NCBI GenBank assembly: GCA_003567775.1
Contig: PWYR01000073.1
Location: forward strand, 1-51,638
DNA length: 51,638 nt
Direction: 5' to 3'
Source: Ignavibacteriales bacterium
GTDB lineage: Bacteria > Bacteroidota > Ignavibacteria > T3Sed10-11
The position numbers and the translations under genes are program-made. Positions 9,884 to 51,269 of the stretch are shown here, one piece after another. Numbering within the stretch: the first letter of the stretch is position 1; every line of letters starts with the position of its first letter. The notes under the pieces were generated by a model that worked only from the letters and a program-made list of their open reading frames with translations, was not told where the DNA came from and made no database searches.

Positions 9884-12122
9884 AAATTTTCAACCGGGCA
9901 AATTTGAGCATTAAACTTTTCTTCCCGGCTGAATCAAACATTACCACGGCCTTCATCAAATCGCCTCTTCCGCTGAGTGATAATACTTTTCCCCTGCCGA
10001 ATTCTTCATGTTCCACAAGAGAGCCGGTATGCAACTGCGGAACAACCTGAGATTCATCTTCATAGGAAAAATGTGATTCGGGGCGTTGGCTTTTCTTCCG
10101 TTTATTTTTTATCTGATCGACAGAAGAGGCTCCTAAGAATGCACGACGTTTTTCGTCTGTGGCTGCTCCATTGTTCCATCCGGCTGTTGCAGGTTGTTTT
10201 TGGTGAATAAATAATTCCGGTTCAATTTCATCGAGAAATCTGGAGGGTGTCGGATAGTAACCTTCACCGAACCGGTATCTGAACCGCGTATAGGTCATAA
10301 ATAATTTCTCTTTTGCACGGGTCATACCCACATAACACAATCTTCGTTCTTCTTCCAGCTCATCGTTTTCGGGATTTCCGTTGTACAACGGAAAGAGTCC
10401 ATCCTCCATCCCTACCATAATCACAACCGGAAATTCCAGTCCCTTTGCGCTGTGAAATGTCATAAGCGTAACACTATTACGGGAATCATTCCATTTGTCG
10501 ACATCGGCAATTAACGAGACTGTTTCAAGGAAATCCGCCAAATTTTTGCCGGGGTTTTCCTGGCAATACTCGGTTATTGCGGAGAGAAGTTCCTGTACGT
10601 TCTCCCATCGCGCGATCGATTCCGGCAATGCTTCTTGTTTGAAAAGCGTTAGTATTCCGGTTTCCTCTATAAATGAACGAGCAAGCTCGCTTGCCGACAT
10701 CTGCTCTTTCTCATATAAATTCCGGTATTTTTGAATCAATGAAATTAGTTCCTGTATACCCCGCCGGGCTTTACGATTAACACGCGGTATTTCATCTATC
10801 TGTTTGAGCGCATCGAATAAAGTAATTTGCGTATCCCGTGCAATGGTTCGTAATCGCTGAATTGTAGTATTACCGATGCCGCGCGGCGGGAAATTGACGA
10901 TCCGGATAAGACTCTCATCATCGACCGGGTTCACAATTACTCGCAAATAGGCAATGACATCCTTAATTTCTTTTCTCTTGTAAAATTCTACTCCCCCGAC
11001 AATTGTATAAGGAATACCTGCCTTTCGCAATCCATCCTCTATCGAACGGGATTGTGCATTTGTCCGGTACAATATAACAAAATGATTGAAATCGCGTTTC
11101 GATCTTTGAAGCTCATCCTGTATTAACCGGGCAACGCGTGCTCCCTCTTCATGTTCGTTTATACATCCAAGGATTTGCAACGGTTCTCCCTCTCTGTTAT
11201 CGGTCCAGAGAGTTTTCGGTATACGTTGGTGATTGTTTTTAATGACGCTGTCGGCTGCGCGAAGTATTAACCGGGTCGAACGGTAATTTTGTTCGAGTCG
11301 GAAAATCCGGCAATCCGGATAATCCCGTTCAAAGTCGAGTATATTTCTGATGTCTGCTCCCCTGAACGCATATATACTTTGCGCATCGTCGCCGACCACA
11401 CAAATGTTCTTTCGTTTCTTTGCGAGCAGGTTCAACAACCGATATTGTGCATGATTGGTATCCTGGTATTCATCCACCAGAATGTATTCAAAATATGACT
11501 GCCACTTCTCAAGAACATCCGGATATTTCTGAAACAATATAATCGGTTTAACTATCAAATCATCGAAATCCATCGCGTTGTTTTGTTGCAGCCGATTGAT
11601 GTATTCGGAATAAACAGCCGCTGTTTTTTCATCAAATATAGATCGCGCTTCTTTTTTAAGTTGATCCGGTGTGAGTAATTTATTTTTCGCACTACTAATA
11701 GTATTTAATATTGCCTTAGGATGGAATTGCTGCTGCGAAATATTAAGATCGTTCATAATAGTGCGCACTAACGATAAAGCATCGTCGGTATCATAGATGG
11801 AATAGGAACGATCATAGCCGAGCACCTGCGCTTCCTGTCGGAGGATCCTTGCAAAGATGGAATGGAACGTTCCCATCCATGGTATTGCCTTCGGGGTCTG
11901 AACGAGCGAGTTAATACGCTCTTTCATTTCATTCGCCGCTTTGTTCGTGAAGGTAAGAGCAAGAATTCTTGCCGGAGGAATACCAAGTTGCAACAGATAT
12001 GCAATCCTGTATGTCAATACACGTGTTTTACCGCTTCCGGCGCCGGCGACCACCATTACCGGGCCGGTAGTTGCCTGAACCGCATCCTGTTGTGAAACAT
12101 TTAATTGCTGTAGCAAATTCAT
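9879..12122 (-). CDS. pcrA: UvrD/PcrA SF1 DNA helicase
   Basis: AGAGSGKTRVLT, TFTNKAA, VDEYQDTN, VGDDAQSIY, LEQNYRST, HSAKGLEF, EEERRLCYVGMTRA and a C-terminal Tudor-like domain. ATG 12122 preferred. Confidence 0.95.
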   Translation of the reverse strand: MNLLQQLNVSQQDAVQATTGPVMVVAGAGSGKTRVLTYRIAYLLQLGIPPARILALTFTNKAANEMKERINSLVQTPKAIPWMGTFHSIFARILRQEAQVLGYDRSYSIYDTDDALSLVRTIMNDLNISQQQFHPKAILNTISSAKNKLLTPDQLKKEARSIFDEKTAAVYSEYINRLQQNNAMDFDDLIVKPIILFQKYPDVLEKWQSYFEYILVDEYQDTNHAQYRLLNLLAKKRKNICVVGDDAQSIYAFRGADIRNILDFERDYPDCRIFRLEQNYRSTRLILRAADSVIKNNHQRIPKTLWTDNREGEPLQILGCINEHEEGARVARLIQDELQRSKRDFNHFVILYRTNAQSRSIEDGLRKAGIPYTIVGGVEFYKRKEIKDVIAYLRVIVNPVDDESLIRIVNFPPRGIGNTTIQRLRTIARDTQITLFDALKQIDEIPRVNRKARRGIQELISLIQKYRNLYEKEQMSASELARSFIEETGILTLFKQEALPESIARWENVQELLSAITEYCQENPGKNLADFLETVSLIADVDKWNDSRNSVTLMTFHSAKGLEFPVVIMVGMEDGLFPLYNGNPENDELEEERRLCYVGMTRAKEKLFMTYTRFRYRFGEGYYPTPSRFLDEIEPELFIHQKQPATAGWNNGAATDEKRRAFLGASSVDQIKNKRKKSQRPESHFSYEDESQVVPQLHTGSLVEHEEFGRGKVLSLSGRGDLMKAVVMFDSAGKKSLMLKFARLKIL

Positions 12123-14981: not shown

Positions 14982-15794
14982 TCATTCTCTAAACTGGTGG
15001 TGCTCCGTAAAAAATTGTTTATATCCACGCTGCACGATTAAAACAGATGATATCATAACACTCGCAGCAATCATGTACATAACAACAATTTGATATTTTA
15101 CTGCTATAATCGGGCTGGCGCCGGACAATATTTGTCCAGTCATCATACCGGGTAGACTGACTATACCCACCGTCATCAAACTATTAATGGTCGGAATCAT
15201 AGCTGCACGAACCGCAGATGCAACAATATCGGAAACCGCTTCACGCGAAGTGGCGCCGAGGGACAAACGGGCTTCAATGAGCGCCCGTTTACTTCGAATT
15301 TCCGATGATAATCGCTCGGCAGCAAGCGCTACCCGCTGTTTTTCACCTACCGATAAGTCTACTGCATTACGGTTGAGAATATTATCGGATACATTTAGAT
15401 ACCGGAGAAGTTCCCTGCATTTATCCCCGAAGTAGGGAGTATCACTCATATTATTTTTCATGTGCTGCACTGCATATTGAAAATTCGACAAAACCGTGCC
15501 ATCGAACATAATCGGGATCTGGGATACATAGCCGACACGAGTACGAAGCGAACGTACATCGTATGTTGCAATATCTTTGCCGTGAAAGAGAATATCTCCG
15601 TCATCGGGATCGGTAAGCCGGTTAAATAACCGCAATAATGTCGTTTTCCCCGACCCGGACGGACCTAAGATGAGCTGCGGTTCTTTTCCGTTGATACCAA
15701 AATTGATATCGCGTAATACCGGTTCCCCGGACATGGAACTATCGGCGGTTTGTACCGGTTTTCTCTTTGTAACATGTTTAAATTCAAAAAGCAT
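14982..15794 (-). pseudogene. In-frame chimera of an ABC ATPase N-terminus (FetA/YbbL-like) and a permease C-terminus (FetB/YbbM-like)
   Basis: Walker A GPSGSGKTT and signature LSVGEKQRVALA are present, but Walker B, D-loop and H-loop are absent. The protein continues into FetB-type IEARLSLGAT...AMIPTINSLMTVGIVSLPGMMTGQILSG...AVKYQI. Confidence 0.75.
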
Positions 15795-27398: not shown

Positions 27399-28521
27399 TT
27401 ATACCGATTTTATAACCGATTGTGATCCGTATTCAATGAGAAACGCCTTAATAAATTTATCTATGTCGCCATCCATGACGCCGCGCGTATCGCTCGTCTC
27501 GACATTTGTGCGGTGATCTTTTACCATATTATAGGGATGAAAAACATAAGATCTTATTTGGCTTCCCCATTCGATCTTCTTTTTTGTTCCTTCGATAGCG
27601 TCGCGTTTTGCTTCTTCTTCTTCCCGCATCTTTTGATACAGCCGCGCTTTTAACATCATCATAGCTCGCTCACGATTTTGATGCTGCGACCGTTCCTGCT
27701 GACACGATACGACAATACCCGACGGTAGGTGCCTGATACGAACGGCTGTTTCAACTTTGTTCACATTCTGTCCGCCCTTGCCGCCCGCTCGAAAGGTATC
27801 CATTTCAATATCGGCAGGGTTGATTTCGATATCGACGTCACTTTCGTTTTCAATTTCGGGATATACAAACACGGAAGCAAATGAAGTATGACGCCGCGCA
27901 TTAGAATCGAATGGTGAAATGCGCACTAATCGATGTACGCCATTTTCAGCTTTTAGATAGCCGTAGGCATAATTTCCCTTGACCTCGATGGTTGCGCTCT
28001 TAATACCCGCGCCGTCGCCTTCGAGCATATCAAATAAAGTAGCGGTCAAACCTTTCCGCTCTACCCACCGCATATACATTCGCATAAGCATTTGCGCCCA
28101 ATCCTGAGCTTCGGTGCCCCCAGCACCCGCGTGAATCGTCAGCAATGCGTTGCGTGTATCGTCTTCGTGACTTAACATACTATGGAACTCAAGGTTGGCA
28201 ACTCCTTCTTTCACTCTTTCGAGTTCATCATCGATTTCAGCTTGCAACGAATCGTCTCCCGATTCTTCGGCAAGTTCAATCAGAGTGGCAAGGTCTTCGA
28301 TTTGTTTATTCAGATCAGTCCACGTATCGACCCACTCTTTTCGCGTGTTAATTTCACGCATTACTTTTTGTGCGGTAATGTTGTCATCCCAAAAGCCGGG
28401 TTCCTGCGTCTTTTCCTGGAATTCGGCTATTTCATGTTCCTTCCCTTCAATGTCAAAGATACCTCCGCAGGTATAGAATTTTCGATCGAATATCCCGGAC
28501 TTCAGATTTAATGTCTTGCAT
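27399..28521 (-). CDS. prfB: Peptide chain release factor 2 with programmed +1 frameshift
   Basis: ATG 28521 opens [22 protein letters not shown], ending at CTT TGA C (28458-28452). The +1 frame continues to [11 protein letters not shown] (SPF) and GGQNVNK. Confidence 0.96.
28452..28467 (-). promoter_or_regulatory. RF2 frameshift site (internal SD plus CTT TGA C)
   Basis: CGGAGG-TAT-CTT-TGA-C on the minus strand. Confidence 0.92.
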
Positions 28522-39392: not shown

Positions 39393-40601
39393 TTAGGTGC
39401 TATTTAGATTAATAAGCGTTGCGCTTATGACTTCATCTGAACGTTTGCGTATTTCTTCCAACATTTCATCGGACGGGCTGGCGTCAAGCTGAATGGTACA
39501 ACAAGCGGCGATCTTACCATCAAATATAACATTTTCCATTTCTTCGGCATTAATATCACCCTGCTTTAATACTGCCAATACATTCGCAAGTACACCCGGC
39601 TTATCATAATGCCGGACGATAAGCTGCCACTGAGCTTCGGTCGCCTTGCATCGGTTAACCCAATTCCGTACCCGCCCTTCCTGTACATACTCCCTAACGA
39701 TCGAGACTGCGTCATCGGCAACTGCGTTTTGAGCTTGTTCTGTCGAAGCACCGATATGATGTGTCACATAAATGTTTTTTACGTGTTGCAGCTTGCTTGA
39801 GAATTCACCCTCTTTTTGTTCCGGCTCGTCGTTAAAGACATCTATACCTGCTTTAATTTTTCCCGCTTCGGCTGCCTCAATCAAAGCGTCTTCATCAACA
39901 ACCTCGGCGCGCGCCGTGTTAATAAAAATCGTACCGGGTTTCATACGCCCGATAATATCTCTGGAAATGATGCCTTTCGTCTCCGGTTTCAATGCGAGAT
40001 GTACGGAAACAATATCACATAATTCCACCAGATCTCCAATAGATTTACAGAATTGAACACCTATTTTCTCGGCATACTGTGGAGTTAATGATCGCGACCA
40101 GGCATACACATCGATTCCACACGATTGTGCCCGTTTGATTAACTCCAGACCGATTTTCCCGGTACCCACAACACCAAGTTTTTTCCCGAATAAACCGTCG
40201 GCTTTTGAATACAACGCTTTATTCCACTTACCATTTCTGAAATCGATAACATTATCGGGTATCTTCCGGTCGATGGCAAGAATTAATCCCATTGCAAGCT
40301 CGGCTACGGCGATGGAATTCTTGCCGGGGCAATTGGCAATGTATATGCCTTTCGCGCTTGCGGCTTTGAGATCGATATTGTTAACTCCCGCACCGGCGCG
40401 AATGATTAAGCTTAACTCGCTGCTATTAGATATACATTTTTCATTTACAACAGTTGAACGAACTATAACAATGGTTGCATCGTTGATTGCCTCTACAAGA
40501 TCGTCTGCCCCCAATTTGGGATTATAATCGACATCAACATTCAGGGATTTCAGCTTATCAATATATTGTTCCGGGAATTTATCAGCCACCACTATTTTCA
40601 T
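39393..40601 (-). CDS. D-3-phosphoglycerate dehydrogenase-like 2-hydroxyacid dehydrogenase with C-terminal ACT domain
   Basis: RAGAGVNNID, GTGKIG, INTAR, HIGASTEQAQ and ACT-like DKPGVLA. Confidence 0.85.
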   Translation of the reverse strand: MKIVVADKFPEQYIDKLKSLNVDVDYNPKLGADDLVEAINDATIVIVRSTVVNEKCISNSSELSLIIRAGAGVNNIDLKAASAKGIYIANCPGKNSIAVAELAMGLILAIDRKIPDNVIDFRNGKWNKALYSKADGLFGKKLGVVGTGKIGLELIKRAQSCGIDVYAWSRSLTPQYAEKIGVQFCKSIGDLVELCDIVSVHLALKPETKGIISRDIIGRMKPGTIFINTARAEVVDEDALIEAAEAGKIKAGIDVFNDEPEQKEGEFSSKLQHVKNIYVTHHIGASTEQAQNAVADDAVSIVREYVQEGRVRNWVNRCKATEAQWQLIVRHYDKPGVLANVLAVLKQGDINAEEMENVIFDGKIAACCTIQLDASPSDEMLEEIRKRSDEVISATLINLNST

Positions 40602-40691
40602 GGCCGTTCTCCTTTCTTGTCGTTATACTTTTCGGGATGGTCGATGTAGAAGTTACATTATCCTGTAATATACGATAAAAAGAGAAAAATG

Positions 40692-41939
40692 TCACCTCAC
40701 ATCAAACTCGAGCACTTCGTATGCTTTTCGCAATGATTGTTCTACTATAAATGGGTCTTTTGCACGAGCAAAGATAAAGCCGGGATATTTACTCCTCTCC
40801 GGCAGCGGCACAAGCTCTTGACCGATATGAGCAGAAATGATCAAATCGGAAATTTCCGGTATTTTTTTTGCCGCTTCAACCCCACGAACACCCTGTAAAG
40901 TTCCCCGACGCGGAGCCGGAATCATCATCACGCCCGATGCATCGGATTCGCGATGTATTGAGTCTATCGAATTATTCAGTGCGTTTCGAATAATCAACTC
41001 TTCAAGTGAAACAATCCGGTCAGGCCGGTTGGCATCCTGAAATCGCAGCGCTTGCGAACAATAGCCGCCTATCGAGCGTGCGGCTATTTCTATTATATAA
41101 TTACCCGACTCATTAAATCGGATCTCGGCATGAAAAGGACCCCGGCTGAGTCCTATTGCGTGCACTGCTTGCTTGGTTAATTCGATTATATCTGTCAGCG
41201 TATCGGGATTATGACGTGACGGCGTCGTATAAATTGTTTCCTCAAAATAAGGACCGGTTAACCGATCGGGTTTGTCGAAGATAGCAAGGATTTTACAGTC
41301 ATTGTCGGTAATCAATCCCTCGACGGCTATTTCATCTCCCTCTATAAATTCCTCGATAAGAACAAACCGGGAATCATGTGTTAATTCCTTCTTGTTAATC
41401 GTATCAAGAATTTTTCTAACTCTATAAAAAGCATTCTGAAGCTCGTTTTTATCATTTACTTTTATCACACCGCGACTGCCCGATAACGCGACTGGCTTGA
41501 GTACAGCCGGAAACGATATATTTCCCGGAAGATATTCAGAATTTTCATCAATCGAAACTCTTATATACGATGGTTGCGGTACAGCATGCTGAGATAAAAA
41601 CTCCCGCATAATATATTTGTTGCGGGTAGCAGATACGGAAATAATTGTATTGTGGGGCAAACCTAATTCCTCGGCTATCGCTGATGCAGCGACAACCGAT
41701 TGATCATCGACACCGATAACCGCGTCAATTCGGTATGACTGTGAAAATGTACTTGCCGATTCAACAGCACGGGCGATATCATAAATATCTATTGACAATA
41801 ATCCTGCAGGGTTCATTTCAGCAAGAGTGCTCCTGTGATCCGAACCGACAGTGACTTCGACATTTATTGAACGAGCTGCTTCAATAAACGCGGTCGTCCG
41901 GTATGACGTAGCGGGTATTAATAACAGGATCCTGTACAT
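40692..41939 (-). CDS. ATP-grasp domain protein (amino-acid/peptide ligase-like)
   Basis: RNKYIMR, FPAVLKP, SGSRGV, LIEEFIEG, FHAEIR and IEIAAR. Confidence 0.88.
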   Translation of the reverse strand: MYRILLLIPATSYRTTAFIEAARSINVEVTVGSDHRSTLAEMNPAGLLSIDIYDIARAVESASTFSQSYRIDAVIGVDDQSVVAASAIAEELGLPHNTIISVSATRNKYIMREFLSQHAVPQPSYIRVSIDENSEYLPGNISFPAVLKPVALSGSRGVIKVNDKNELQNAFYRVRKILDTINKKELTHDSRFVLIEEFIEGDEIAVEGLITDNDCKILAIFDKPDRLTGPYFEETIYTTPSRHNPDTLTDIIELTKQAVHAIGLSRGPFHAEIRFNESGNYIIEIAARSIGGYCSQALRFQDANRPDRIVSLEELIIRNALNNSIDSIHRESDASGVMMIPAPRRGTLQGVRGVEAAKKIPEISDLIISAHIGQELVPLPERSKYPGFIFARAKDPFIVEQSLRKAYEVLEFDVR

Positions 41940-41966
41940 ACGGGTTGGTTATTTATCCGATATCGA

Positions 41967-42980
41967 TTACGAATCGATACGCAAAACCAGCTTCCCGAAT
42001 TGTGCTGTATCTTCCATTCGGGAATGCGCTTTGAATGCTTCCTCAAGAGGTAGAATTGAATCTACTACCGGTTTAAGATCATTGTTCGAGTACAAGCGCA
42101 GCATATTTTCGAAATCACCCGGCGATCCCATTGTAGAGCCGAATATATTGAGCTGTTTCCAGAAAATCCGGCGGACGGTTACATTATCGGAAGGACCGAG
42201 CGTCGCGCCGTACATTACAATCGCTCCTCCCGGTTTAACAACATCGAGAATCGCATCGAAATTTTCGCCGCCGGCGCTATCCACCACAACATCTATTCCA
42301 CTGTTGCCGGTCATTTCCTTTAATTCATTTATCCATTGATCGTGTTTATAATTAACGCCCCCCTCGGCGCCGATCTTTTTTGCGCGGTCAAGTTTTTCAT
42401 CACTGTGTGACGTAACAAAGACACGGGCGCCTAATATTTTCGCAATTTGAAGCGCAAAACACGCTACTCCACCACCGATACCTGTTATCAACACCGTCTG
42501 TCCTTTTTGAATATTCGCCCGTGAAACAACCGCACGATATGCCGTCAACCCCGCAAGCGGAATTGCGGCTGCCTCTTCCCGGGTAAGATTATTCGGCTTA
42601 TCGTAAACATTTTCAACGGGAATCGCAACATATTCTGCATAGGTCCCGTTATCGGGTAAGCCGAGTATTCGAAAATCGTCCCGTTGCACCCGTTCGCTGT
42701 CTCCCCAATTCAAACAAGGATTAATAACTACTTCTTTTCCAACCAGCGATGAATCAACGCCAGCACCCGTTTCGGCGACTATGCCGGCTCCGTCGGATCC
42801 GATTATGACGGGTAATTTAATTCCTGCATACCTTCCTCTCCGAATCCACACATCGCGGCGGTTGAGTGCGGCCGCTTTCAATTGAACGACAACCTCACCC
42901 TCTTTCGGGGCGGGGTCGGCAAACTCCTCAACTTTCAGTTGATCGGGTTCACCAAGCTCATGAAGGACAACAGCTTTCAT
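41967..42980 (-). CDS. MDR-superfamily NAD(P)H quinone oxidoreductase-like protein
   Basis: ALNRRD, GSDGAG, AAAIPLAGLTAYRA, GIGGGVA and FGKLVL. GGAG RBS favours ATG 42980 (alternative GTG 42986). Confidence 0.88.
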   Translation of the reverse strand: MKAVVLHELGEPDQLKVEEFADPAPKEGEVVVQLKAAALNRRDVWIRRGRYAGIKLPVIIGSDGAGIVAETGAGVDSSLVGKEVVINPCLNWGDSERVQRDDFRILGLPDNGTYAEYVAIPVENVYDKPNNLTREEAAAIPLAGLTAYRAVVSRANIQKGQTVLITGIGGGVACFALQIAKILGARVFVTSHSDEKLDRAKKIGAEGGVNYKHDQWINELKEMTGNSGIDVVVDSAGGENFDAILDVVKPGGAIVMYGATLGPSDNVTVRRIFWKQLNIFGSTMGSPGDFENMLRLYSNNDLKPVVDSILPLEEAFKAHSRMEDTAQFGKLVLRIDS

Positions 42981-43009
42981 TCTCACTCCGTAACTTTATA
43001 TTCTTCTGT

Positions 43010-43606
43010 TTATTTATTAGATGGAGCGTAATACGGATTTGCACCGGATGCGTGATCGGTCACGTCAAGAATGCTTCCTACCTGCGGGATAAATTGGCGG
43101 ATCATTTTTTCAATGCCCTGGCGCAATGTAACATTAGCCATTCCACATCCCTGACATCCTCCTCCAAGTTGCAGATACACATTATTCTTCTTCACGTCGA
43201 TTAAATCAACAAAACCGCCGTGTGAAGCGACGGCAGGATTTATCTGAGTTTCGAGAAGCTCTTTCACTTTGTTTCGTATCTCTTCCTCGGAGGGAAGATT
43301 TTTCTCGACATCCGCCGATATCGCCGGTGTGCCGGACTGCAATTGTGTCCGGATCATTGCACCGACCTGTTTTGCAAGCGGCATCCAGTCCTCGTTGTCG
43401 GCTTTTGTAACCTTAACGATATTGTCATGCACCAAGACCGAAGATATGTTCGGTAAGTCAAAGATTTTTTCGGCAAGCGGCGATCCTTCTGCTTCTTTCT
43501 TGGCGGCAAAATATACCGCACCGTTTTCGTAAACAGGTCTGTCGACGGTGAATTGACACACTTCCTGTGATGCTACTTGAGCTTGAATTTTAATTTCATC
43601 TGCCAT
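43010..43606 (-). CDS. NfuA/NifU-type Fe-S carrier (Nfu N-terminal scaffold plus NifU-C domain)
   Basis: SPLAEKIF in the N-terminal domain; INPAVASHGG and GGCQGC (CxxC). Confidence 0.9.
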   Translation of the reverse strand: MADEIKIQAQVASQEVCQFTVDRPVYENGAVYFAAKKEAEGSPLAEKIFDLPNISSVLVHDNIVKVTKADNEDWMPLAKQVGAMIRTQLQSGTPAISADVEKNLPSEEEIRNKVKELLETQINPAVASHGGFVDLIDVKKNNVYLQLGGGCQGCGMANVTLRQGIEKMIRQFIPQVGSILDVTDHASGANPYYAPSNK

Positions 43607-43626
43607 AATGTATTCATCCTTTTTAG

Positions 43627-45051
43627 TTATATACTAATTTGATTTTTCATTGGTTCTGCACAACAAAACCACGGTTCCGTTAATCGCGGTGCCTTTTCGC
43701 GATCTTCAAACTCTGGATAAACAAACTGTCCCGGCGGTCGTTGATCACGGGCTTCGTATGCCGCCTCCCGTATTAACTTGAACGTAATCGCTGTATCACG
43801 TCGAGGACACGCAGCGTCCTCAACAATCTGTGACACACGTTTATGTAATTCATCCATTCTCGGATCGGGGTGTTTCCACTTAAAATACAACGATGCTTTA
43901 TCAAGTTCGCCCAGATAGGGCTGAATTTCCTTCTGTTCCAACAATCGGGAATCCGGTGGAATAAGCAAACGTATGGATAATTGAACCGGGTCAACATTAT
44001 CAATTAAATATTCTTTGTAGACAAATTCAACCATTTCTATATAATCGTCGAGCGTTGTCCAGGGGGTAAATGCTACCCATGTCGGTCTCAAAGCTATTTC
44101 TGCACTTCTCACGATATCAAGCGCCCGGAATACATCTTCGCGTGTGTGTCCTTTGGCGAGATATTTCAAAACCGTATTGTTCAAAGACTCAACAGCCGAA
44201 ATAATGAAAATACAGCCGGTTTTTTGAAATTCAGGTATTAACCCGGCATGCTTGATCAGATGCTCCACCTTTGCTGTAAAATCGAATGTCAGATGCGGAA
44301 ATTCATCACTCATCCTGCGTACTATTCTTAACGAGTGAGTAGGTCCATTTAGAAAATCCGGATCCCCGAAAGTTATGTGTTTCGCTCCCATTTCGACTTG
44401 CTGACGGATATCGTCTATGATAACATCTATTGGAACAGCAAAAAACCTACCATGATATACAGCAGGGATTGGACAATGCAAACAGTGATGTAAACAACCG
44501 CGGGTGGTTTCAACATATCCGACTAATTTTTCGGCGCCATTCCATTCAAGCTTTGCGTATTTTTCAAGCGGTGGGAGTGCTTTTCTGTTTGTGGATGGAA
44601 ATGATAGACGCTTTAAATATGGTGCGCGTTTCAATTTCACCGAGTCCGCAACGGGTCGGGACATTACCGAACGTGATTCCACCTGCTGAACAATCTGAAC
44701 GAGTTCGTTTTCGTATTCGCCGCCTATTACCGAGTCAGCCACAGTTTCAAGCAAATAGTCTGCGTTAAGGGTTGCGTACATACCATAAAAGCAGATATGA
44801 CAATTCTGATTAAGCCGACGAATCTTCTCTGCGGCAGAGATACCGATACGCATTGCCGTGTGCATAGGCGTTGAGATTCCAACAAATAGTGCACGACGGA
44901 TAACCTCTTCATCCAATTTATCAATACCGATATCGAGTGCTACCGGCGAAAATCCTTCCTGTTCAAGAAATCCCATCGGCATCGCGAGACCGACCGGTTG
45001 ATGACCAAGCTCATAACACGATATCAATACAATAGCACCTGGTTCACGCAT
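43627..45051 (-). CDS. Radical SAM enzyme with B12-binding-like N-terminal domain and CCAEP C-terminal tail
   Basis: ETTRGCLHHCLHCP (CxxxCxxC), ITFGDPDF, N-terminal ISCYELGHQP and C-terminal TEPWFCCAEP (TGT TGT). ATG 45051 avoids overlap with the upstream A-type carrier gene. Confidence 0.88.
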   Translation of the reverse strand: MREPGAIVLISCYELGHQPVGLAMPMGFLEQEGFSPVALDIGIDKLDEEVIRRALFVGISTPMHTAMRIGISAAEKIRRLNQNCHICFYGMYATLNADYLLETVADSVIGGEYENELVQIVQQVESRSVMSRPVADSVKLKRAPYLKRLSFPSTNRKALPPLEKYAKLEWNGAEKLVGYVETTRGCLHHCLHCPIPAVYHGRFFAVPIDVIIDDIRQQVEMGAKHITFGDPDFLNGPTHSLRIVRRMSDEFPHLTFDFTAKVEHLIKHAGLIPEFQKTGCIFIISAVESLNNTVLKYLAKGHTREDVFRALDIVRSAEIALRPTWVAFTPWTTLDDYIEMVEFVYKEYLIDNVDPVQLSIRLLIPPDSRLLEQKEIQPYLGELDKASLYFKWKHPDPRMDELHKRVSQIVEDAACPRRDTAITFKLIREAAYEARDQRPPGQFVYPEFEDREKAPRLTEPWFCCAEPMKNQISI

Positions 45052-45088
45052 ACTTTTTGTTGGCGCCGGGCAAGTTTTTATAATGTGA

Positions 45089-45475
45089 TCAAACTCCGAA
45101 CGAACTTCCGCACCCGCAGGATTTGGTTGCCGTTGGATTATTGAATACAAACCCCCGTCCGTTTAATCCATCGGTATAATCAAGCACCGTGCCGCGCAAG
45201 TACATCAGACTTCGTTCATCGACAAGGACTTTTACACCTTGTTCTTCAATGACAATATCACCCTCGCGCGCTCCTTCTTCAAAGGCCAGCATATACGACA
45301 ATCCCGAGCAGCCGCCCCCTTTTACACCTACCCGAAGAGCATGTTCCTCAGGTATATTATTCTCTTTCTTAATTTTTCCTATTTCCTCGGCTGCTTTTTC
45401 GGTTAATTCAATATCTTTCTGCACCTCCATACCCGGTACAGTAATAGGGTTGTTAGCATTTGGTGTATCAGACAT
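45089..45475 (-). CDS. A-type Fe-S carrier (IscA/SufA/HesB)
   Basis: LRVGVKGGGCSGLSY and NPTATKSCGCGSSF. Confidence 0.95.
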   Translation of the reverse strand: MSDTPNANNPITVPGMEVQKDIELTEKAAEEIGKIKKENNIPEEHALRVGVKGGGCSGLSYMLAFEEGAREGDIVIEEQGVKVLVDERSLMYLRGTVLDYTDGLNGRGFVFNNPTATKSCGCGSSFGV

Positions 45476-45503
45476 AATAAATCCTCCCTTTAAAAATCGT
45501 TAA

Positions 45504-45815
45504 TTATAATCCAAGTTCGAGTCGTGCTTCTTCACTCATCATTTCCGGATTCCATGGCGGATCCCACACAACATCCACTTTTACCTCATTCACACCCTCT
45601 ACGTTTTTAACTCTTTGTTCAACATCCTTAGGCAATGTACCGGCAACCGGACATGCCGGGGACGTCAGGGTCATACGAACGTTTACATTGAAATCGCCGT
45701 CAATATGGACATCATAAATCAGTCCAAGCTCATAAATGTTTACCGGTATTTCAGGATCATAACATGTCCTGATCATATCGATTATCTGTTTTTTTAATAA
45801 TTCTCTGTCAGCCAT
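45504..45815 (-). CDS. sufT: DUF59/SufT Fe-S maturation protein
   Basis: YDPEIPVNIYELGLIY, MTLTSPACP and WDPPW. Confidence 0.9.
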   Translation of the reverse strand: MADRELLKKQIIDMIRTCYDPEIPVNIYELGLIYDVHIDGDFNVNVRMTLTSPACPVAGTLPKDVEQRVKNVEGVNEVKVDVVWDPPWNPEMMSEEARLELGL

Positions 45816-45820
45816 AACTG

Positions 45821-46276
45821 TTATTTTTCAGTAGATACAACATGTTCTTTATTTTCGAGCGCAGCACGTAATGTGTGCCACGCAAGACTTGCGCACTTGA
45901 CTCTCGCCGGGAATTCACTGACACCCGAAAATACAGCAAGCTTACCGATCCGGTCAAGCTCTTCAATCGGGTCGGATTCACCCATTACCAGTTTATGAAA
46001 AAGTTTTCCTAACTCTTCCGCCTCTTCCTTTGTTTTGCCCTTGAGCAGAGAACTCATAACCGAAGCAGAAGCTTTCGATATTGCACAACCCGCACCTTCA
46101 AAAGCCACTTCTTGAATGATGTCATCTTCGACGCGCAAATAAATATTATAATGATCGCCGCACAGGGGATTATATCCCTCGGCGTGGCGGTTAGCGTTTT
46201 CAAGCTTCTTGAAATTACGCGGGTTTTTGTTATGATCCAGGATAATTTCCTGGTACAACGATTTTAATTCAGACAT
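45821..46276 (-). CDS. sufU: SUF system NifU-family protein SufU
   Basis: LYQEIILDH, NPLCGD, GCAISKASAS and RVKCA. ATG 46276 overlaps the sufS stop (TAATG). Confidence 0.94.
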   Translation of the reverse strand: MSELKSLYQEIILDHNKNPRNFKKLENANRHAEGYNPLCGDHYNIYLRVEDDIIQEVAFEGAGCAISKASASVMSSLLKGKTKEEAEELGKLFHKLVMGESDPIEELDRIGKLAVFSGVSEFPARVKCASLAWHTLRAALENKEHVVSTEK

Positions 46277-47538
46277 TATCGAAAGATTTTTTTCGCCTTT
46301 TCGATGCTCCGAATAAGCGCATCTACTTCGTCTTTTGTATTGTACATAGCAAACGATGCACGTGCAGTTGCCGGGATTCCAAACCGCTGCATTACCGGCT
46401 GCGTACAATGATGACCTGTCCTTATTGCAACACCTTCGGAGTCGATAATTGTTCCAATATCGTGCGGGTGCACGTCTTCAAGCATAAACGATATAACCGC
46501 CGATTTATTTTTTGCAGCGCCTATCATTCTCAGTCCATCGACGGATAACAACGCTTGTGTAGCGTATGCAAGCAGGTCTTGCTCGTAGGCATAAATATTA
46601 TCAATCCCAATTTTATTAATGTAATCAGATGCGGCGCCGAGTGCAGTAGCGCCCGCGATATTCGGTGTACCCGCCTCAAACTTATATGGAAGATCGTTAT
46701 ATATTGTTTTCTCAAAAGTAACCGACTTGATCATATCGCCGCCTCCTTGATACGGCGACATATTTTCGAGATACTCACTTTTCCCGTATAAAACACCGAT
46801 ACCCGTCGGTCCGAACATCTTGTGCCCTGAAAAAACATAGAAATCACAATTTAAATCCTGCACGTCGAGCTTCATATGAGAAACAGTCTGCGCGCCATCG
46901 ATCAATACCGGTATATCGTGTGCGTGCGCCATTTCGATCATTTGCTTTACCGGGTTCACCGTACCGAGTGAATTCGATATATGTACAAGCGACACAAACT
47001 TTACTTTCGGAGAGAGCATTTTCTCGTACTCTTCCAGAATGATCTCCCCCTTATCATTGATCGGCGCCACGCGAAGAATTGCACCTGTTTCCTGACACAC
47101 TATCTGCCACGGCACAATGTTCGAGTGATGCTCCATTCCGGTAATGAGAATCTCTTCACCCGCATTTATCCTCTTCTTCACAAAGCTATTCGCAACAAGA
47201 TTGATCCCCTCGGTTGTTCCCCGGACAAAAATAATCTCCTGAGTTTGCTGCGCATTAATAAATCCACATAAATTTTTCCGGCTATTTTCATACCCCTCGG
47301 TTGCTTTCTGGCTCAGGTAGTGGACACCGCGGTGTATATTCGAATTATCTTCGAGATAATAACGCCGTAAAGAATCAACTACACACATCGGTTTCTGGGT
47401 GGTGGCGGCATTATCGAGATATACGAGGGGCTTCCCGTTGACTTTCCGGTTCAGTATCGGAAAATCAGACCGTATACTCCATACATCGAATGGATCTTTC
47501 GATCTTAGGGGAGTCAGTGTTTCAACCGCTGCTTTCAT
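46276..47538 (-). CDS. sufS: Cysteine desulfurase SufS
   Basis: YLDNAATTQKP, EHHSN, SGHK (PLP Lys) and RTGHHC. Confidence 0.96.
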   Translation of the reverse strand: MKAAVETLTPLRSKDPFDVWSIRSDFPILNRKVNGKPLVYLDNAATTQKPMCVVDSLRRYYLEDNSNIHRGVHYLSQKATEGYENSRKNLCGFINAQQTQEIIFVRGTTEGINLVANSFVKKRINAGEEILITGMEHHSNIVPWQIVCQETGAILRVAPINDKGEIILEEYEKMLSPKVKFVSLVHISNSLGTVNPVKQMIEMAHAHDIPVLIDGAQTVSHMKLDVQDLNCDFYVFSGHKMFGPTGIGVLYGKSEYLENMSPYQGGGDMIKSVTFEKTIYNDLPYKFEAGTPNIAGATALGAASDYINKIGIDNIYAYEQDLLAYATQALLSVDGLRMIGAAKNKSAVISFMLEDVHPHDIGTIIDSEGVAIRTGHHCTQPVMQRFGIPATARASFAMYNTKDEVDALIRSIEKAKKIFR

Positions 47539-47553
47539 AAATAAACACCCGAA

Positions 47554-48906
47554 TTATTCTTTATCTATACCTTCAAGTCTATCTTGTTGTAATTTCACAA
47601 GCACACGTTGATGGCAATAATCGCGCAACTCTTTTATTTTAATTCGATCGATAACATCGCTTGCAAAGGCATACGTGAGAATATCGCGCGCCATATCTCT
47701 CTGAATACCGCGCGTTTGCAGATAAAACAATGCCTCCTCATCAAGCTGACCGATCGTTGCGCCGTGCGTACACTTAACATCATCGGCAAAGATCTCGAGC
47801 TGCGGCTTCGTATCTATACTTGCGCCATCGGACAGTAAAAGTGCTTGATTCGTTTGTTTTGCATCGGTTTTTTGTGCATCGAGACGGACAAAAATCTTCC
47901 CGTTAAAAACGCCCCTCGCACTACCGTCAAGCACTCCTTTATACAACTCATGACTGTTACAATGCGGTTTCGCATGATCGATAGTCGTGTGATTGTCAAT
48001 GAGTTGACTGCCAGTACCAAGATACAATCCATTTAGCGTAGATTCAACCCCTTCGGCATCGAGAGTCGCCCGCGGATTATTCCTGACAATCAAACCGCCG
48101 AAATCTATCGCATTGGACACAAAATTACTGTTTGCCATTTGATAGGTCTGTATCGTCGACACATGATATGCCTCACTACTCTCTTCTTGCACCTTATGGT
48201 GCTCAATGTGCGCATTTTCGTCAACAAATACTTCTGTGACGGCATTGGTGAAATAACGGTTATTTTTAATTCCGGTATAGGTTTCAATGATCGTTGCTTT
48301 ACTGTGCTTCCCTGCAATGAATAAATTCCGCGGGTAACTAACAAACGGCTCGCTTTTGCCTGATGCCAGGAAAAGCAGATGTATCGGTTTCTCTATCAAA
48401 GCATTATCAGAAAGATAAATATAAGCGCCATCGTTAATGAATGCTGTATTCAACGCCGTAAAGGCATCATCATCATACCGTGCATATTTAGTGAGATGTT
48501 GTTTCACGGCTGCAGCATCTGCCCGCAATGCTTCGGCAAGACTTCCGATTTTAACCCCGTCGGGCAGGTCACGCACGGATGAATGTTTCCCGGAAAAATG
48601 ACCGTCGATAAACACAAGCAGGTGTACAGCAAGTCCGTTGTAATCGTATCGTAATATATCATTTGTTGATACAAGATCGAAATCGGGCTGGATAATGTGT
48701 TTAAAATTTTCTTTCGCGATGGATGCAACGTTTGTATATTTCCACTCCTCATTCCGTGTGGTCGGGAAACCGAGTTCATCAAACTTTCTGAGCGCATCAC
48801 GCCGAACGTCATGACACCAACTACCGGCTTCACCATTCAGGTTTTTTTCGAACGTCTCGAAATTTGATAAATACAACTGATTATTTTCTTTTATTGCCAA
48901 TGCCAT
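47554..48906 (-). CDS. sufD: Fe-S cluster assembly protein SufD
   Basis: EEWKYT, VFNGKI, KPQLEIFADDVKCTHGAT and LFYLQTRGI. Confidence 0.96.
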   Translation of the reverse strand: MALAIKENNQLYLSNFETFEKNLNGEAGSWCHDVRRDALRKFDELGFPTTRNEEWKYTNVASIAKENFKHIIQPDFDLVSTNDILRYDYNGLAVHLLVFIDGHFSGKHSSVRDLPDGVKIGSLAEALRADAAAVKQHLTKYARYDDDAFTALNTAFINDGAYIYLSDNALIEKPIHLLFLASGKSEPFVSYPRNLFIAGKHSKATIIETYTGIKNNRYFTNAVTEVFVDENAHIEHHKVQEESSEAYHVSTIQTYQMANSNFVSNAIDFGGLIVRNNPRATLDAEGVESTLNGLYLGTGSQLIDNHTTIDHAKPHCNSHELYKGVLDGSARGVFNGKIFVRLDAQKTDAKQTNQALLLSDGASIDTKPQLEIFADDVKCTHGATIGQLDEEALFYLQTRGIQRDMARDILTYAFASDVIDRIKIKELRDYCHQRVLVKLQQDRLEGIDKE

Positions 48907-48908
48907 TG

Positions 48909-49688
48909 TTACACTGTCTCCTCAAGTTTTGCTTTGACATCCGAATATTCTGCTCTGATTTGATCGTACCCCTTTTCTTCAAGTTCAATCGCAAGGTTTT
49001 TATCGCCGGACTTGACAATTTTTCCATTCAAGAGAATATGTACGTAATCCGGGACGATGTAATTGAGCAGCCGCTGATAGTGTGTGACGACGATAATAGC
49101 GCGATCTTTGGTGCGCAATCTGTTGACACCGTCGGAAACGATACGCAAAGCATCTATATCCAAGCCCGAATCGGTCTCATCCATAATAGCGAGCTTCGGT
49201 TCGAGTACCGCCATCTGAAGTATCTCATTTCGCTTCTTCTCACCGCCCGAGAATCCCTCGTTAACTGAGCGATTCAACATATCGGTGCTGATATCCAGTA
49301 TCTTTGCCTTTTCTTTGATGTGCTTCAGGAAATCCATTGCATCGAGTGGTTCGAGTCCCTGATGCTTTCTTATCTCGTTTAGGCCTGTTTTCAGAAAGTA
49401 TGAATTCGTCACACCCGGTATCTCAACGGGATACTGGAAGGCCATGAATAATCCTTCGCGTGCCCGCTCATCCGGTTCCATATCGAGCATATCTTTCCCG
49501 AGATAGGTAATTTCACCGCCCGTTACGTCATAGGTATCGCGTCCGCTGATAACCTGCGCAAGCGTACTTTTTCCCGAACCGTTCGGTCCCATGATGGCAT
49601 GAACTTCGCCCGGTTTTACGGATAAATCAATCCCCTTGAGGATCTGAGTTCCTTCAATCTCTACATGTAAATTTTTTACGTCCAGCAT
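48909..49688 (-). CDS. sufC: Fe-S cluster assembly ATPase SufC
   Basis: MGPNGSGKST, FQYPVEIPGV, GFSGGEKKR and DETDSGLDIDAL. Confidence 0.97.
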   Translation of the reverse strand: MLDVKNLHVEIEGTQILKGIDLSVKPGEVHAIMGPNGSGKSTLAQVISGRDTYDVTGGEITYLGKDMLDMEPDERAREGLFMAFQYPVEIPGVTNSYFLKTGLNEIRKHQGLEPLDAMDFLKHIKEKAKILDISTDMLNRSVNEGFSGGEKKRNEILQMAVLEPKLAIMDETDSGLDIDALRIVSDGVNRLRTKDRAIIVVTHYQRLLNYIVPDYVHILLNGKIVKSGDKNLAIELEEKGYDQIRAEYSDVKAKLEETV

Positions 49689-49742
49689 TCGTGCTTATCT
49701 CCGAATTATTAATGTAACATTATTTTAATTTTGAAAATATTA

Positions 49743-51269
49743 TTATCCGACACTTCCTTCAAGACTGACACCGAGAAGCTTCTGCGCTTCGACGGCGAAC
49801 TCCATCGGCAATTCCTTGAATACCTCTTTCGCAAATCCATTCACAATGATTGAAACGGCATCTTCGGTCGATATACCGCGCTGATTGCAGTAAAAGATCT
49901 GATCTTCACCGATCTTTGAAGTCGTCGCTTCGTGTTCAATCTGTGACGATGTATTCTTGGCTTCAATATACGGGAATGTATGCGCACCGCACCGGTCTCC
50001 GAGCAATAACGAATCGCACTGTGAGAAGTTGCGTGCGTTCTCTGCATTCTTCATCACCCTGACGAGTCCGCGGTACGAATTCTGGCTCACACCACCCGCA
50101 ATACCTTTGGCAACGATATTGCTCCTGGTGTTCTTTCCGATGTGTATCATCTTCGTTCCGGTATCCGCCTGCTGGTGATTCATAGTAAGCGCTACGGAAT
50201 AGAACTCACCCATCGAGTTATCACCCTGCAAAATAACGCTCGGATATTTCCACGTAATAGCAGAACCTGTTTCTACCTGCGTCCATGAAATCTTTGAGTT
50301 GACGCCTGCACATTTACCGCGCTTGGTCACAAAGTTGTAAATACCGCCCTTTCCGTCTTTATCACCGGGGTACCAGTTTTGAACGGTTGAGTACTTTATT
50401 TGTGCATCATCGAGAGCGATCAGCTCAACCACCGCGGCATGAAGCTGATGTGTATCACGCTTCGGGGCTGTACAACCTTCAAGATAGCTGACATAAGCGC
50501 TTTCTTCTGCAACGATAAGCGTTCTCTCGAACTGTCCGGTATTCTCGCTATTGATACGAAAGTAGGTTGACAATTCCATCGGACAGCGGACACCTTTCGG
50601 TATATAGACAAACGAACCGTCACTGAATACAGCGGAGTTCAAAGCCGCAAAGTAATTATCGTTATACGGAACAACCGATCCGATATACTTCCTAACGAGA
50701 TCGGGATGGTTCTGTACGGCTTCGGACATCGAACAGAAGATAATTCCTTCTTCGGCAAGCTTCTCCTTAAACGTTGTCGCCACCGACACGCTATCGAACA
50801 CCGCGTCGACCGCAACGCCGGCAAGCATCTTTTGCTCCTCAAGCGGGATACCGAGCTTTTTGTATGTTTCCAGCAACTCGGGATCGACTTCATCGAGACT
50901 CTTCGGTGCGTCATCTTTTGACTTTGGCGCCGCATAGTACCGCTGGCTCTGATAATCGATCGGCGGATACTTCACATTCACCCATGTCGGTTCCGTCATC
51001 TTTTGCCAGTTCCTGAACGCTTTCAAACGCCATGCAAGCATCCACTCCGGTTCTTTTTTCTTCAGAGATATAAACCGAACCACATCCTCATTCAACCCGG
51101 GAGAGGCATATTCTTGCTCAATGTCGGTAAAAAATCCCCACTTATATTCGCGATTACCGAGAGCTTCGAGAGTATCTTTCTCGGTTACTTTCTTCTTCGC
51201 TTTATGTATCTTTTTTTCTTCCGGAATAGTTTCTACCTGTGGTTGATCCTTCTCAAGCATATCACTCAT
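49743..51269 (-). CDS. sufB: Fe-S cluster assembly protein SufB
   Basis: [33 protein letters not shown] and HEATTSKI. Confidence 0.98.

Follow-up and report, generated by a model that had tools for sequence, protein, structure and literature searches.

A CCAEP-tail radical SAM gene and an amino-acid-ligase-type ATP-grasp gene form a unit in the suf operon of an Ignavibacteriales bacterium

To our knowledge, ArsL is the only radical S-adenosylmethionine (SAM) enzyme with the canonical cysteine motif that has so far been shown to make a 3-amino-3-carboxypropyl (ACP) radical. It cleaves SAM into methylthioadenosine (MTA) and this radical, while three cysteines in its tail hold As(III) (10.1101/2024.02.01.577332), and both SAM cleavage and acceptor binding by the tail cysteines are also described in the accessible portion of a second report (10.64898/2026.04.29.721666). 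An ArsL tail variant, ‘MCCA’, is given as the one that handles methylarsenite most efficiently, this acceptor having one valence fewer to bind, in the relevant passages of a 2026 review (PMC13598754), and a tail with only the vicinal cysteine pair can therefore support ACP transfer. The NCBIfam family NF040546 (CUAEP/CCAEP tail) is described as uncharacterized in the available part of a preprint (Haft 2022, 10.1101/2022.07.06.499078), which was the sole publication found under the family name or accession within the limited literature searched. We analyzed a 51,638-nt contig of an Ignavibacteriales bacterium (PWYR01000073.1, positions 1 to 51,638, hereafter the window) in which an NF040546 gene, here called rSAM, lies directly downstream of a suf gene block, and found that it forms a unit not with all three genes that follow it but with the last of them, which encodes an ATP-grasp of the L-amino-acid ligase (LAL) type: the two genes are gained and lost together and occur together in many phyla. 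The four genes concerned are:

43627-45051, minus strand: CCAEP-tail radical SAM protein (rSAM), 474 aa; NF040546, 677.7 bits
43010-43606, minus strand: Nfu-type Fe-S carrier; Pfam NifU 79.6 bits and Nfu_N 55 bits
41967-42986, minus strand: NAD(P)H oxidoreductase of the medium-chain dehydrogenase/reductase (MDR) family; Pfam MDR superfamily, TIGR02824 217.2 bits (cut-off 296.8)
40692-41939, minus strand: LAL-type ATP-grasp (the ligase), 415 aa; Pfam ATP-grasp_4, LAL_C2 and ATPgrasp_N

Joint gain and loss of rSAM and the ligase

The original prediction regarded all four genes as appended to the suf operon, but for Nfu and MDR this did not hold. A genome of the same genus (G004) and one of the same family (G006) carry sufBCDSUT-carrier-Nfu-MDR-serA-proS, with both junctions seen, and lack rSAM and the ligase, and the nearest relative of the window (G002) carries carrier-Nfu-MDR on a contig that starts inside the MDR gene. 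In all three, none of which has rSAM, Nfu directly follows the A-type carrier. Because relatives without rSAM and the ligase keep Nfu-MDR, we regard Nfu and MDR as backbone genes; furthermore, none of 80 loci of the rSAM family (defined below) has an MDR homologue within 5 kb. Full-length Nfu was found in 7/7 genomes of the bacterial family and 0/34 other relatives, as well as in 34 of 151 Planctomycetota genomes, 28 of which have no rSAM, and this wide occurrence without rSAM marks Nfu as a general carrier. It scores 89.6 bits against the NfuA models TIGR03341/NF008392 (cut-off 269.35), with only the C-terminal NifU domain aligned, and its N-terminal domain is Pfam Nfu_N, making it an Nfu-type carrier and not NfuA proper. 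The MDR protein falls below every equivalog cut-off, including that of the PIG3-type model TIGR02824.

Within the genus, rSAM and the ligase occupy separate slots, between the carrier and Nfu and between MDR and serA, respectively. Both are present in the genome of the window (G000) and in G001, G003 and G005, the last with the full gene order of the window, and neither was found in G002 or G004. Their joint presence and absence despite separate slots argues for functional dependence of the two genes. A tree of eight locus proteins (2219 columns, rooted on G006) has the topology (G004,(G005,(G000,G002) 99) 87), which implies no fewer than one joint gain of the two genes and one joint loss, in G002. 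That G002 has no ligase was concluded from searching its whole genome, which is 85% complete, and searches for remnants of either gene in the slots that are vacant in G002, G004 and G006 (tblastn with E up to 10, blastn-short) returned chance-level matches only. The genus therefore offers a natural experiment, an otherwise identical operon with and without the two genes, and marks out the ligase, rather than Nfu or MDR, as rSAM's true partner.

The partnership extends well beyond the genus. We collected 80 loci of the rSAM family (L004-L083) from species genomes and compared the window proteins by blastp with all open reading frames (ORFs) of at least 70 aa, counting as neighbors matches with E ≤ 1e-6 within 5 kb that cover at least 40% of the query. 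A homologue of the ligase (43–48% identity) is a neighbor at 35 loci, Nfu at 34, DUF169 at 20, CDGSH at 9 and an Atg22-like major facilitator superfamily (MFS) protein at 7. In the well-flanked subset (42 loci bordered by 3 kb or more on each side), the corresponding counts are 23 for the ligase, 23 for Nfu, 11 for DUF169 and 7 for CDGSH; 29 loci have at least one of ligase, Nfu and DUF169, and every ligase-bearing locus in this subset (23/23) also has Nfu or DUF169. Where the ligase is absent from the rSAM locus, an orthologue (42–47% identity) lies elsewhere in four of five genomes. Three genome samples gave the following distribution:

Relatives of the window, 41 genomes: both genes 4 (G000, G001, G003, G005), rSAM only 0, ligase only 0, neither 37
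Planctomycetota, 151 genomes: both genes 6, rSAM only 1, ligase only 0, neither 144
Chloroflexota, 151 genomes: both genes 32, rSAM only 2, ligase only 11, neither 106

Among the relatives, G000, G001 and G005 have an rSAM that exceeds the NF040546 cut-off, whereas that of G003 is truncated where its contig stops. Of the 11 ligase-only matches in Chloroflexota two are weak, and leaving out G233, which is flagged unpublished, changes the count for both genes to 31/150. The proposal that the radical SAM and ATP-grasp genes would co-occur elsewhere was thus supported, both in the neighborhoods (23/42 loci) and in all three samples (4, 6 and 32 genomes).

The radical SAM protein and its kinship with ArsL

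The family assignment put forward in the original prediction was upheld by an NCBIfam search with hidden Markov models, in which rSAM exceeds the NF040546 cut-off of 500 bits with residues 7-472 aligned to model positions 1-466 of 468, and we regard it as an ordinary member of the family in its Cys form. The second-best NCBIfam model is that of ArsL (NF040542; 332.2 bits, below the cut-off of 450), and by sequence comparison NF040546 is the nearest family to ArsL. The suggested kinship with ArsL was therefore sustained, all the more as the proteins align end to end at 33–36% identity with their tail cysteine pairs in register. The match to Pfam Radical_SAM scores 51.4 bits. The cysteine motif and the tail reported earlier are both present:

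44473-44496, minus strand: CxxxCxxC motif (C186, C190, C193) of the SAM-cleaving [4Fe-4S] cluster, translating to CLHHCLHC
43651-43671, minus strand: WFCCAEP tail, its vicinal CC aligned with the first two Cys of ArsL RCCLKC

At its C terminus, the protein reads WFCCAEPMKNQISI. The CxxxCxxC motif is invariant in 22/22 sequences and in 9/9 of an alignment with ArsL-family proteins. Three parts make up the protein: an N-terminal Rossmann (B12-binding-like) domain, the radical SAM core and, at the C terminus, a domain that carries a flexible tail. The earlier description of the N-terminal domain as B12-binding-like is only partly confirmed, as the Pfam B12-binding match, at 29.9 bits, is under the cut-off of 32.1. 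An AlphaFold2 model (predicted local distance difference test score, pLDDT, 88.7) has AprD4, OxsB, TsrM, MgmA and MiaB as its best Foldseek matches, with a radical SAM barrel after the Rossmann domain, and the fold resembles the B12-dependent OxsB and TsrM as well as AprD4, which has a B12-binding-type domain yet is not known to bind cobalamin. Five residues of the N-terminal domain, C12, H17, H64, C84 and C87, are conserved in the CUAEP group only, although C84 is replaced by Ala in Thermomicrobium roseum; in the model, C12 follows strand 1, C84 stands at the start of strand 4 and C87 lies within strand 4. A MiaB-like auxiliary cluster on C12, C84 and C87 was considered and dropped in view of the Ala in T. 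roseum and of these positions.

By analogy with ArsL, the reading we favor, tentatively, is that rSAM would move the ACP group of SAM to a soft atom held on its tail by two ligands, giving a methionine-shaped amino acid that the ligase then couples. As the third cysteine of the ArsL tail is missing, leaving only a vicinal Cys-Cys or, in most relatives, Cys-selenocysteine (Cys-Sec) pair, and as arsenic genes are missing from the surroundings, the acceptor would not be As(III). It would most likely be sulfane sulfur, in the form of a persulfide from SufS/SufU or the Fe-S pool, or alternatively selenium in Sec-using hosts, with the second tail residue resolving the adduct. The product would be a methionine- or homocysteine-shaped amino acid (2-amino-4-X-butanoate), which the ligase would activate and couple to a second amino acid or amine, and Nfu, or DUF169 in other lineages, would either keep the rSAM cluster loaded or receive the product. 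Location in the only suf operon, with no terminator in between, would tie expression to Fe-S and sulfur supply. Within the limited literature searched, we found no publication linking 3-amino-3-carboxypropyl, radical SAM and ATP-grasp.

The ligase fits such a role by its own relationships. In Pfam it matches ATP-grasp_4 (119.7 bits), LAL_C2 (46.7) and ATPgrasp_N (35.6); a profile of 25 orthologues aligns over its full length with BL00235 (PDB 3vot; E 3e-65), and the predicted structure matches 3vot with a Foldseek TM score of 0.83. On this evidence it is an ATP-grasp of the L-amino-acid-ligase type whose closest characterized relative is the Met-specific BL00235, for which the available part of a review (PMC6920838) lists Met-Gly and Met-Met as products. 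A reading in terms of a ribosomally synthesized and post-translationally modified peptide was rejected, the gaps of 20–37 nt holding no small ORF and the ligase being LAL-type.

A different order of events is conceivable, in which the ligase first makes a dipeptide and rSAM then modifies it by canonical 5′-deoxyadenosyl chemistry (for example C-H functionalization or thioether formation), the tail serving as a hydrogen-atom donor or redox pair. The CxxxCxxC motif and TIM-barrel fold are those expected, the best structural matches AprD4, OxsB and MiaB are ordinary 5′-deoxyadenosyl enzymes, Cys/Sec pairs are typical redox motifs, as in thioredoxin reductase, and the ligase occurs without rSAM, as it should were rSAM an optional tailoring enzyme. 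Nevertheless, no other family is nearly as close as ArsL, which makes the ACP radical despite sharing this motif and fold, and the tail CC is aligned with the acceptor-binding CC of ArsL, such that we consider this order unlikely.

The original prediction went further and suggested a possible carbon-metalloid product. In that case the CC tail would bind methylarsenite or another trivalent metalloid, and arsinothricin or an analogue would pass to the ligase to yield a dipeptide antibiotic. Such a pathway could draw on the superior catalysis by the CC-only ArsL variant with methylarsenite given in that review (PMC13598754), on the LAL-like ATP-grasp present in four of five ArsL-family loci inspected, on the Atg22-like MFS exporter near the module in 7/80 loci and on near-identical DNA from soda-lake and salt-lake metagenomes. 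The genomic context, however, gives the idea no support. Queries from plasmid arsenic loci found no arsenic gene in the window; ArsM-like genes lie near the family in 1/80 loci, and ArsN1, ACR3, ArsR, aquaporin, CobW, CMD, ArsQ, ArsH and ArsC were each found in 0/80, whereas all five ArsL-family loci inspected are arsenic islands with several arsenic genes. The family is also very large across many phyla, unlike a niche arsenic trait, and its neighbors are Fe-S proteins instead. We therefore regard a metalloid product as very improbable.

The ATP-grasp genes of the ArsL-family plasmid loci are 22–26% identical to the window ligase, so not orthologous to it. With four of the five loci carrying one, the pairing of an ACP-type radical SAM enzyme with an amino-acid ligase recurs in the sister family. 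A LAL-like ATP-grasp and a small CMD-family gene were observed inside the arsenic island in Bacillus cereus, Alicyclobacillus acidocaldarius, Priestia sp. and Pantoea agglomerans (L094 438-1661 and 4995-6269; L096 2430-3662 and 5995-7266; L097 2680-3903 and 5995-7269; L098 5995-8768), in Pantoea directly 3′ of the radical SAM gene. No such pair was seen in L099, the classical arsQ-arsL-arsM locus of Pseudomonas amygdali. Peptide-linked relatives of arsinothricin may exist; we found no publication joining arsinothricin with ATP-grasp in the sense of a peptide linkage within the limited literature searched.

NF040546 homologues are very many, at least 7998 with E ≤ 1e-30 (7998 of the 8000 candidates scored). 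Numerous database entries stop at WFC, where the following codon is TGA. Tails could be read in 72 of the 80 loci, of which 53 are Cys-Sec (TGA) and 19 Cys-Cys. Cys-tail forms mostly occur with DUF169 (13/19) and Sec-tail forms with Nfu (30/53), a pattern that is probably confounded by lineage (Nitrospirota vs others). For DUF169, merely passing mentions were found in the literature searched, and none was found in the five genomes of the genus. In these five genomes (the best 94% complete) no selD scored over its cut-off, in keeping with a Cys form that does without selenium; a selenophosphate route to selenium in the genus is therefore unlikely. The cultured Thermomicrobium roseum DSM 5159 has a family member with 51% identity on its megaplasmid (NC_011961.1, L093 7953-9389). 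Its annotation stops at WFC, pointing to a Sec form truncated at TGA, and on either side of it lie a divergent pyridoxal-phosphate-dependent aminotransferase and an MFS transporter; a search of that megaplasmid record found no ligase.

Placement in the suf operon and the link to Nfu

In transcription order, all on the minus strand, the block in the window reads sufB-sufC-sufD-sufS-sufU-sufT-type-A-type carrier-rSAM-Nfu-MDR-ATP-grasp-serA-like-proS-aldehyde dehydrogenase. Its first part, with sufB, C, D and S plus SufU and SufT-type genes in one same-strand block, is a SUF operon:

45089-51269, minus strand: whole SUF block, sufB to A-type carrier
49743-51269, minus strand: sufB; TIGR01980 over cut-off, single copy in G000
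48909-49688, minus strand: sufC; named from translation and conserved order in relatives
47554-48906, minus strand: sufD; named likewise
46276-47538, minus strand: sufS; named likewise
45821-46276, minus strand: sufU; NCBIfam SufU 157 bits (cut-off 92.5)
45504-45815, minus strand: sufT-type gene; SUF_assoc 149 bits (cut-off 143.4)
45089-45475, minus strand: A-type carrier; 121.5 bits (cut-off 58.8)
39393-40601, minus strand: serA-like gene
40667-40695, minus strand: promoter-like site ahead of serA, directly past the ATP-grasp stop; consensus scan

The gaps measure 37 nt between carrier and rSAM, 20 between rSAM and Nfu, 23 between Nfu and MDR, 27 between MDR and ATP-grasp and 90 between ATP-grasp and serA. 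A consensus terminator scan of the minus strand from sufB to ATP-grasp gave no intergenic site, every minus-strand site lying inside coding sequence, and thus the run-on from suf into the four downstream genes stands as first described. The promoter-like site probably marks the end of the suf-to-ligase unit, and TTTTATCGTATATTA is kept upstream of serA in G000, G004 and G005. This order is not an assembly artefact, because contigs of other runs, three runs each belonging to a different study, bridge all junctions from serA to sufT; one of these studies is possibly the source of the window itself. Specifically, one contig of X4 covers 39400-46400, one of X1 covers 39400-45230, and in X6 two contigs bridge the ATP-grasp/MDR/Nfu/rSAM and rSAM/carrier/sufT junctions. 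One copy of sufB over the TIGR01980 cut-off was found in each of G000 and G005, and with a single sufB this is the only SUF system seen in the genome of the window, which is 68% complete.

The placement downstream of suf is not a trait of the family but is confined to two lineages, the genus of the window and one lineage of Planctomycetota (L068, G176), in which the order is sufBCD-U-T-radical SAM-Nfu-DUF169-ligase. A close relative on a short contig (L004) is also suf-linked, and in three further Planctomycetota positives sufB lies on other contigs. One could read the placement as an accident of genome history, with the pair working here as it does in other phyla, given that only L004, the genus itself and the one Planctomycetota lineage are suf-linked, against 78 other loci. 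A terminator-like hairpin (GGGAC....GTCCC, then a T-run) follows the A-type carrier in L089 (about 10817-10945; G005) and L090 (1483-1680; G002), so that the suf unit may end before rSAM in these relatives. The window, however, lacks this hairpin and has a gap of just 37 nt there, rSAM sits exactly upstream of Nfu, its usual neighbor elsewhere, and this linkage came about in each of two distant phyla. An accident is therefore possible but, to us, rather doubtful.

Several observations weigh against ACP transfer followed by ligation. A homocysteine-like compound made from SAM would be metabolically circular unless the product is special, and the mechanism leaves the CUAEP-specific residues C12, H17, H64, C84 and C87 without explanation. 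No ArsL structure was found in the PDB copy searched, so the residues that decide between ACP and 5′-deoxyadenosyl cleavage are not comparable. Among the well-flanked loci, 13/42 have no partner gene nearby, and the ligase occurs without rSAM in 11/151 Chloroflexota genomes. Kin within each genome sample are not independent, so the genome counts are given without statistics. Five of these ligase-only genomes, each with a strong ligase orthologue (L100-L104, corresponding to G240, G212, G316, G285 and G319) were searched again at E 1e-15 and yielded no family rSAM, and in 5/5 the ligase adjoins a NifU-domain gene. The link to Nfu is thus no less a feature of the ligase than of rSAM, the ligase must have another substrate source in these genomes, and a role of Nfu in loading rSAM only is not the whole story. 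Taken together, the pairing suggests higher odds that the product or the ligase itself concerns Fe-S carriers. In L101 and L102, an NDH2-like pyridine-nucleotide-disulfide oxidoreductase gene lies just downstream.

The fallback named in the original prediction, that these are SUF-linked accessory factors, gains some weight from this pairing of ligase and Nfu. Here rSAM and the ligase would act on or with Nfu or another SUF carrier, through modification, cluster repair or a ligand for the carrier, with no free metabolite. Consistent with this, Nfu lies on the same contig beside both enzymes in 6/6 Planctomycetota, the module sits inside the sole suf operon of the genus and 3′ of sufBCDUT in one Planctomycetota lineage, and CDGSH Fe-S proteins adjoin in 7/42 loci. 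Yet over its full length the ligase is related to ligases of free amino acids and not to protein ligases of the RimK/LysX type (LysX reaches E 2e-9 only), Nfu homologues occur in 28 Planctomycetota genomes that have no rSAM, and suf linkage is limited to two lineages among the loci examined. Moreover, G002, G004 and G006 keep SUF and Nfu with neither enzyme, which shows that Fe-S assembly as such can do without them. We consider this role decidedly unlikely, and the alternative was only partly strengthened.

ACP transfer to sulfur or selenium followed by ligation remains the reading we tentatively prefer. A bolder extension, which we offer as a long shot, is that NF040546 might be a second and far larger ACP-radical family that forges a C-S or C-Se bond on a swinging tail, the ligase turning the product into a thiol or selenol dipeptide that would aid Nfu carriers in Fe-S delivery, a new low-molecular-weight thiol system in more than 10 phyla. 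Such a dipeptide would explain the neighborhood of ligase and Nfu in genomes without rSAM and the two recruitments into suf operons. Of the earlier interpretation as a whole, the family, the kinship with ArsL and the partnership of rSAM and ligase stand, whereas Nfu and MDR as appended genes do not, and the metalloid product found no support.

Elsewhere the window holds housekeeping genes (dnaE, thioredoxin, aspS, prfB, uvrD and lol-type ABC genes). A release-factor ORF at 27399-28361 (minus strand) begins at position 29 of the PCRF domain model and is probably prfB with the usual programmed +1 frameshift upstream. A single ORF at 14982-15794 (minus strand) matches both the ABC_tran ATPase and the UPF0014 membrane domain, and is either a fused FetA/FetB-like gene or a merger from ORF calling. 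DNA near-identical to 39400-46400 was found in 16 public runs from five named studies, with soda lake, salt lake, sediment or microbial mat as their metagenome labels; no RNA run was among them.

Comparison with ArsL, amino-acid ligases and NfuA partners

In Escherichia coli, NfuA is a partner of LipA and MiaB, two radical SAM enzymes that insert sulfur. The window resembles that arrangement in having an Nfu-type carrier gene beside a radical SAM gene, which fits reloading of a cluster consumed or damaged in turnover. It differs in that the window Nfu has Nfu_N in place of the A-type domain and its homologues pair also with the ligase alone, and in that rSAM, unlike LipA and MiaB, shows no sign of an auxiliary cluster. 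The linkage to the sole SUF system and the pairing of ligase and Nfu make the function of the family a testable question about S/Se chemistry and Fe-S handling.

The ligase shares the domain set ATPgrasp_N, ATP-grasp_4 and LAL_C2 with the L-amino-acid ligases BL00235, BacD/YwfE and RizA, but at about 24% identity, and the window protein reaches no NCBIfam equivalog. In addition, an invariant C294 and D78 are specific to the ligases linked to the radical SAM family.

With ArsL, rSAM shares its three-part architecture and length, the CxxxCxxC motif and, with three plasmid RCCLKC proteins, an alignment over the whole length in which the CC dipeptides correspond. The differences lie in the tail, which has no counterpart of the third Cys, continues with AEP and in most relatives has Sec at the second position; in the N-terminal domain, whose family-specific Cys and His residues are absent from ArsL; and in the surroundings, where Fe-S carrier genes stand in place of arsenic genes or an ArsM-type methyltransferase partner. 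The ligase in ArsL-family loci in turn suggests peptide-linked relatives of arsinothricin. NF040546, much larger than ArsL’s own family, spread over many environmental phyla and usually bearing Sec at the presumed acceptor site, has no assigned reaction, and in the window protein it offers a Cys form that can be expressed without selenocysteine machinery.

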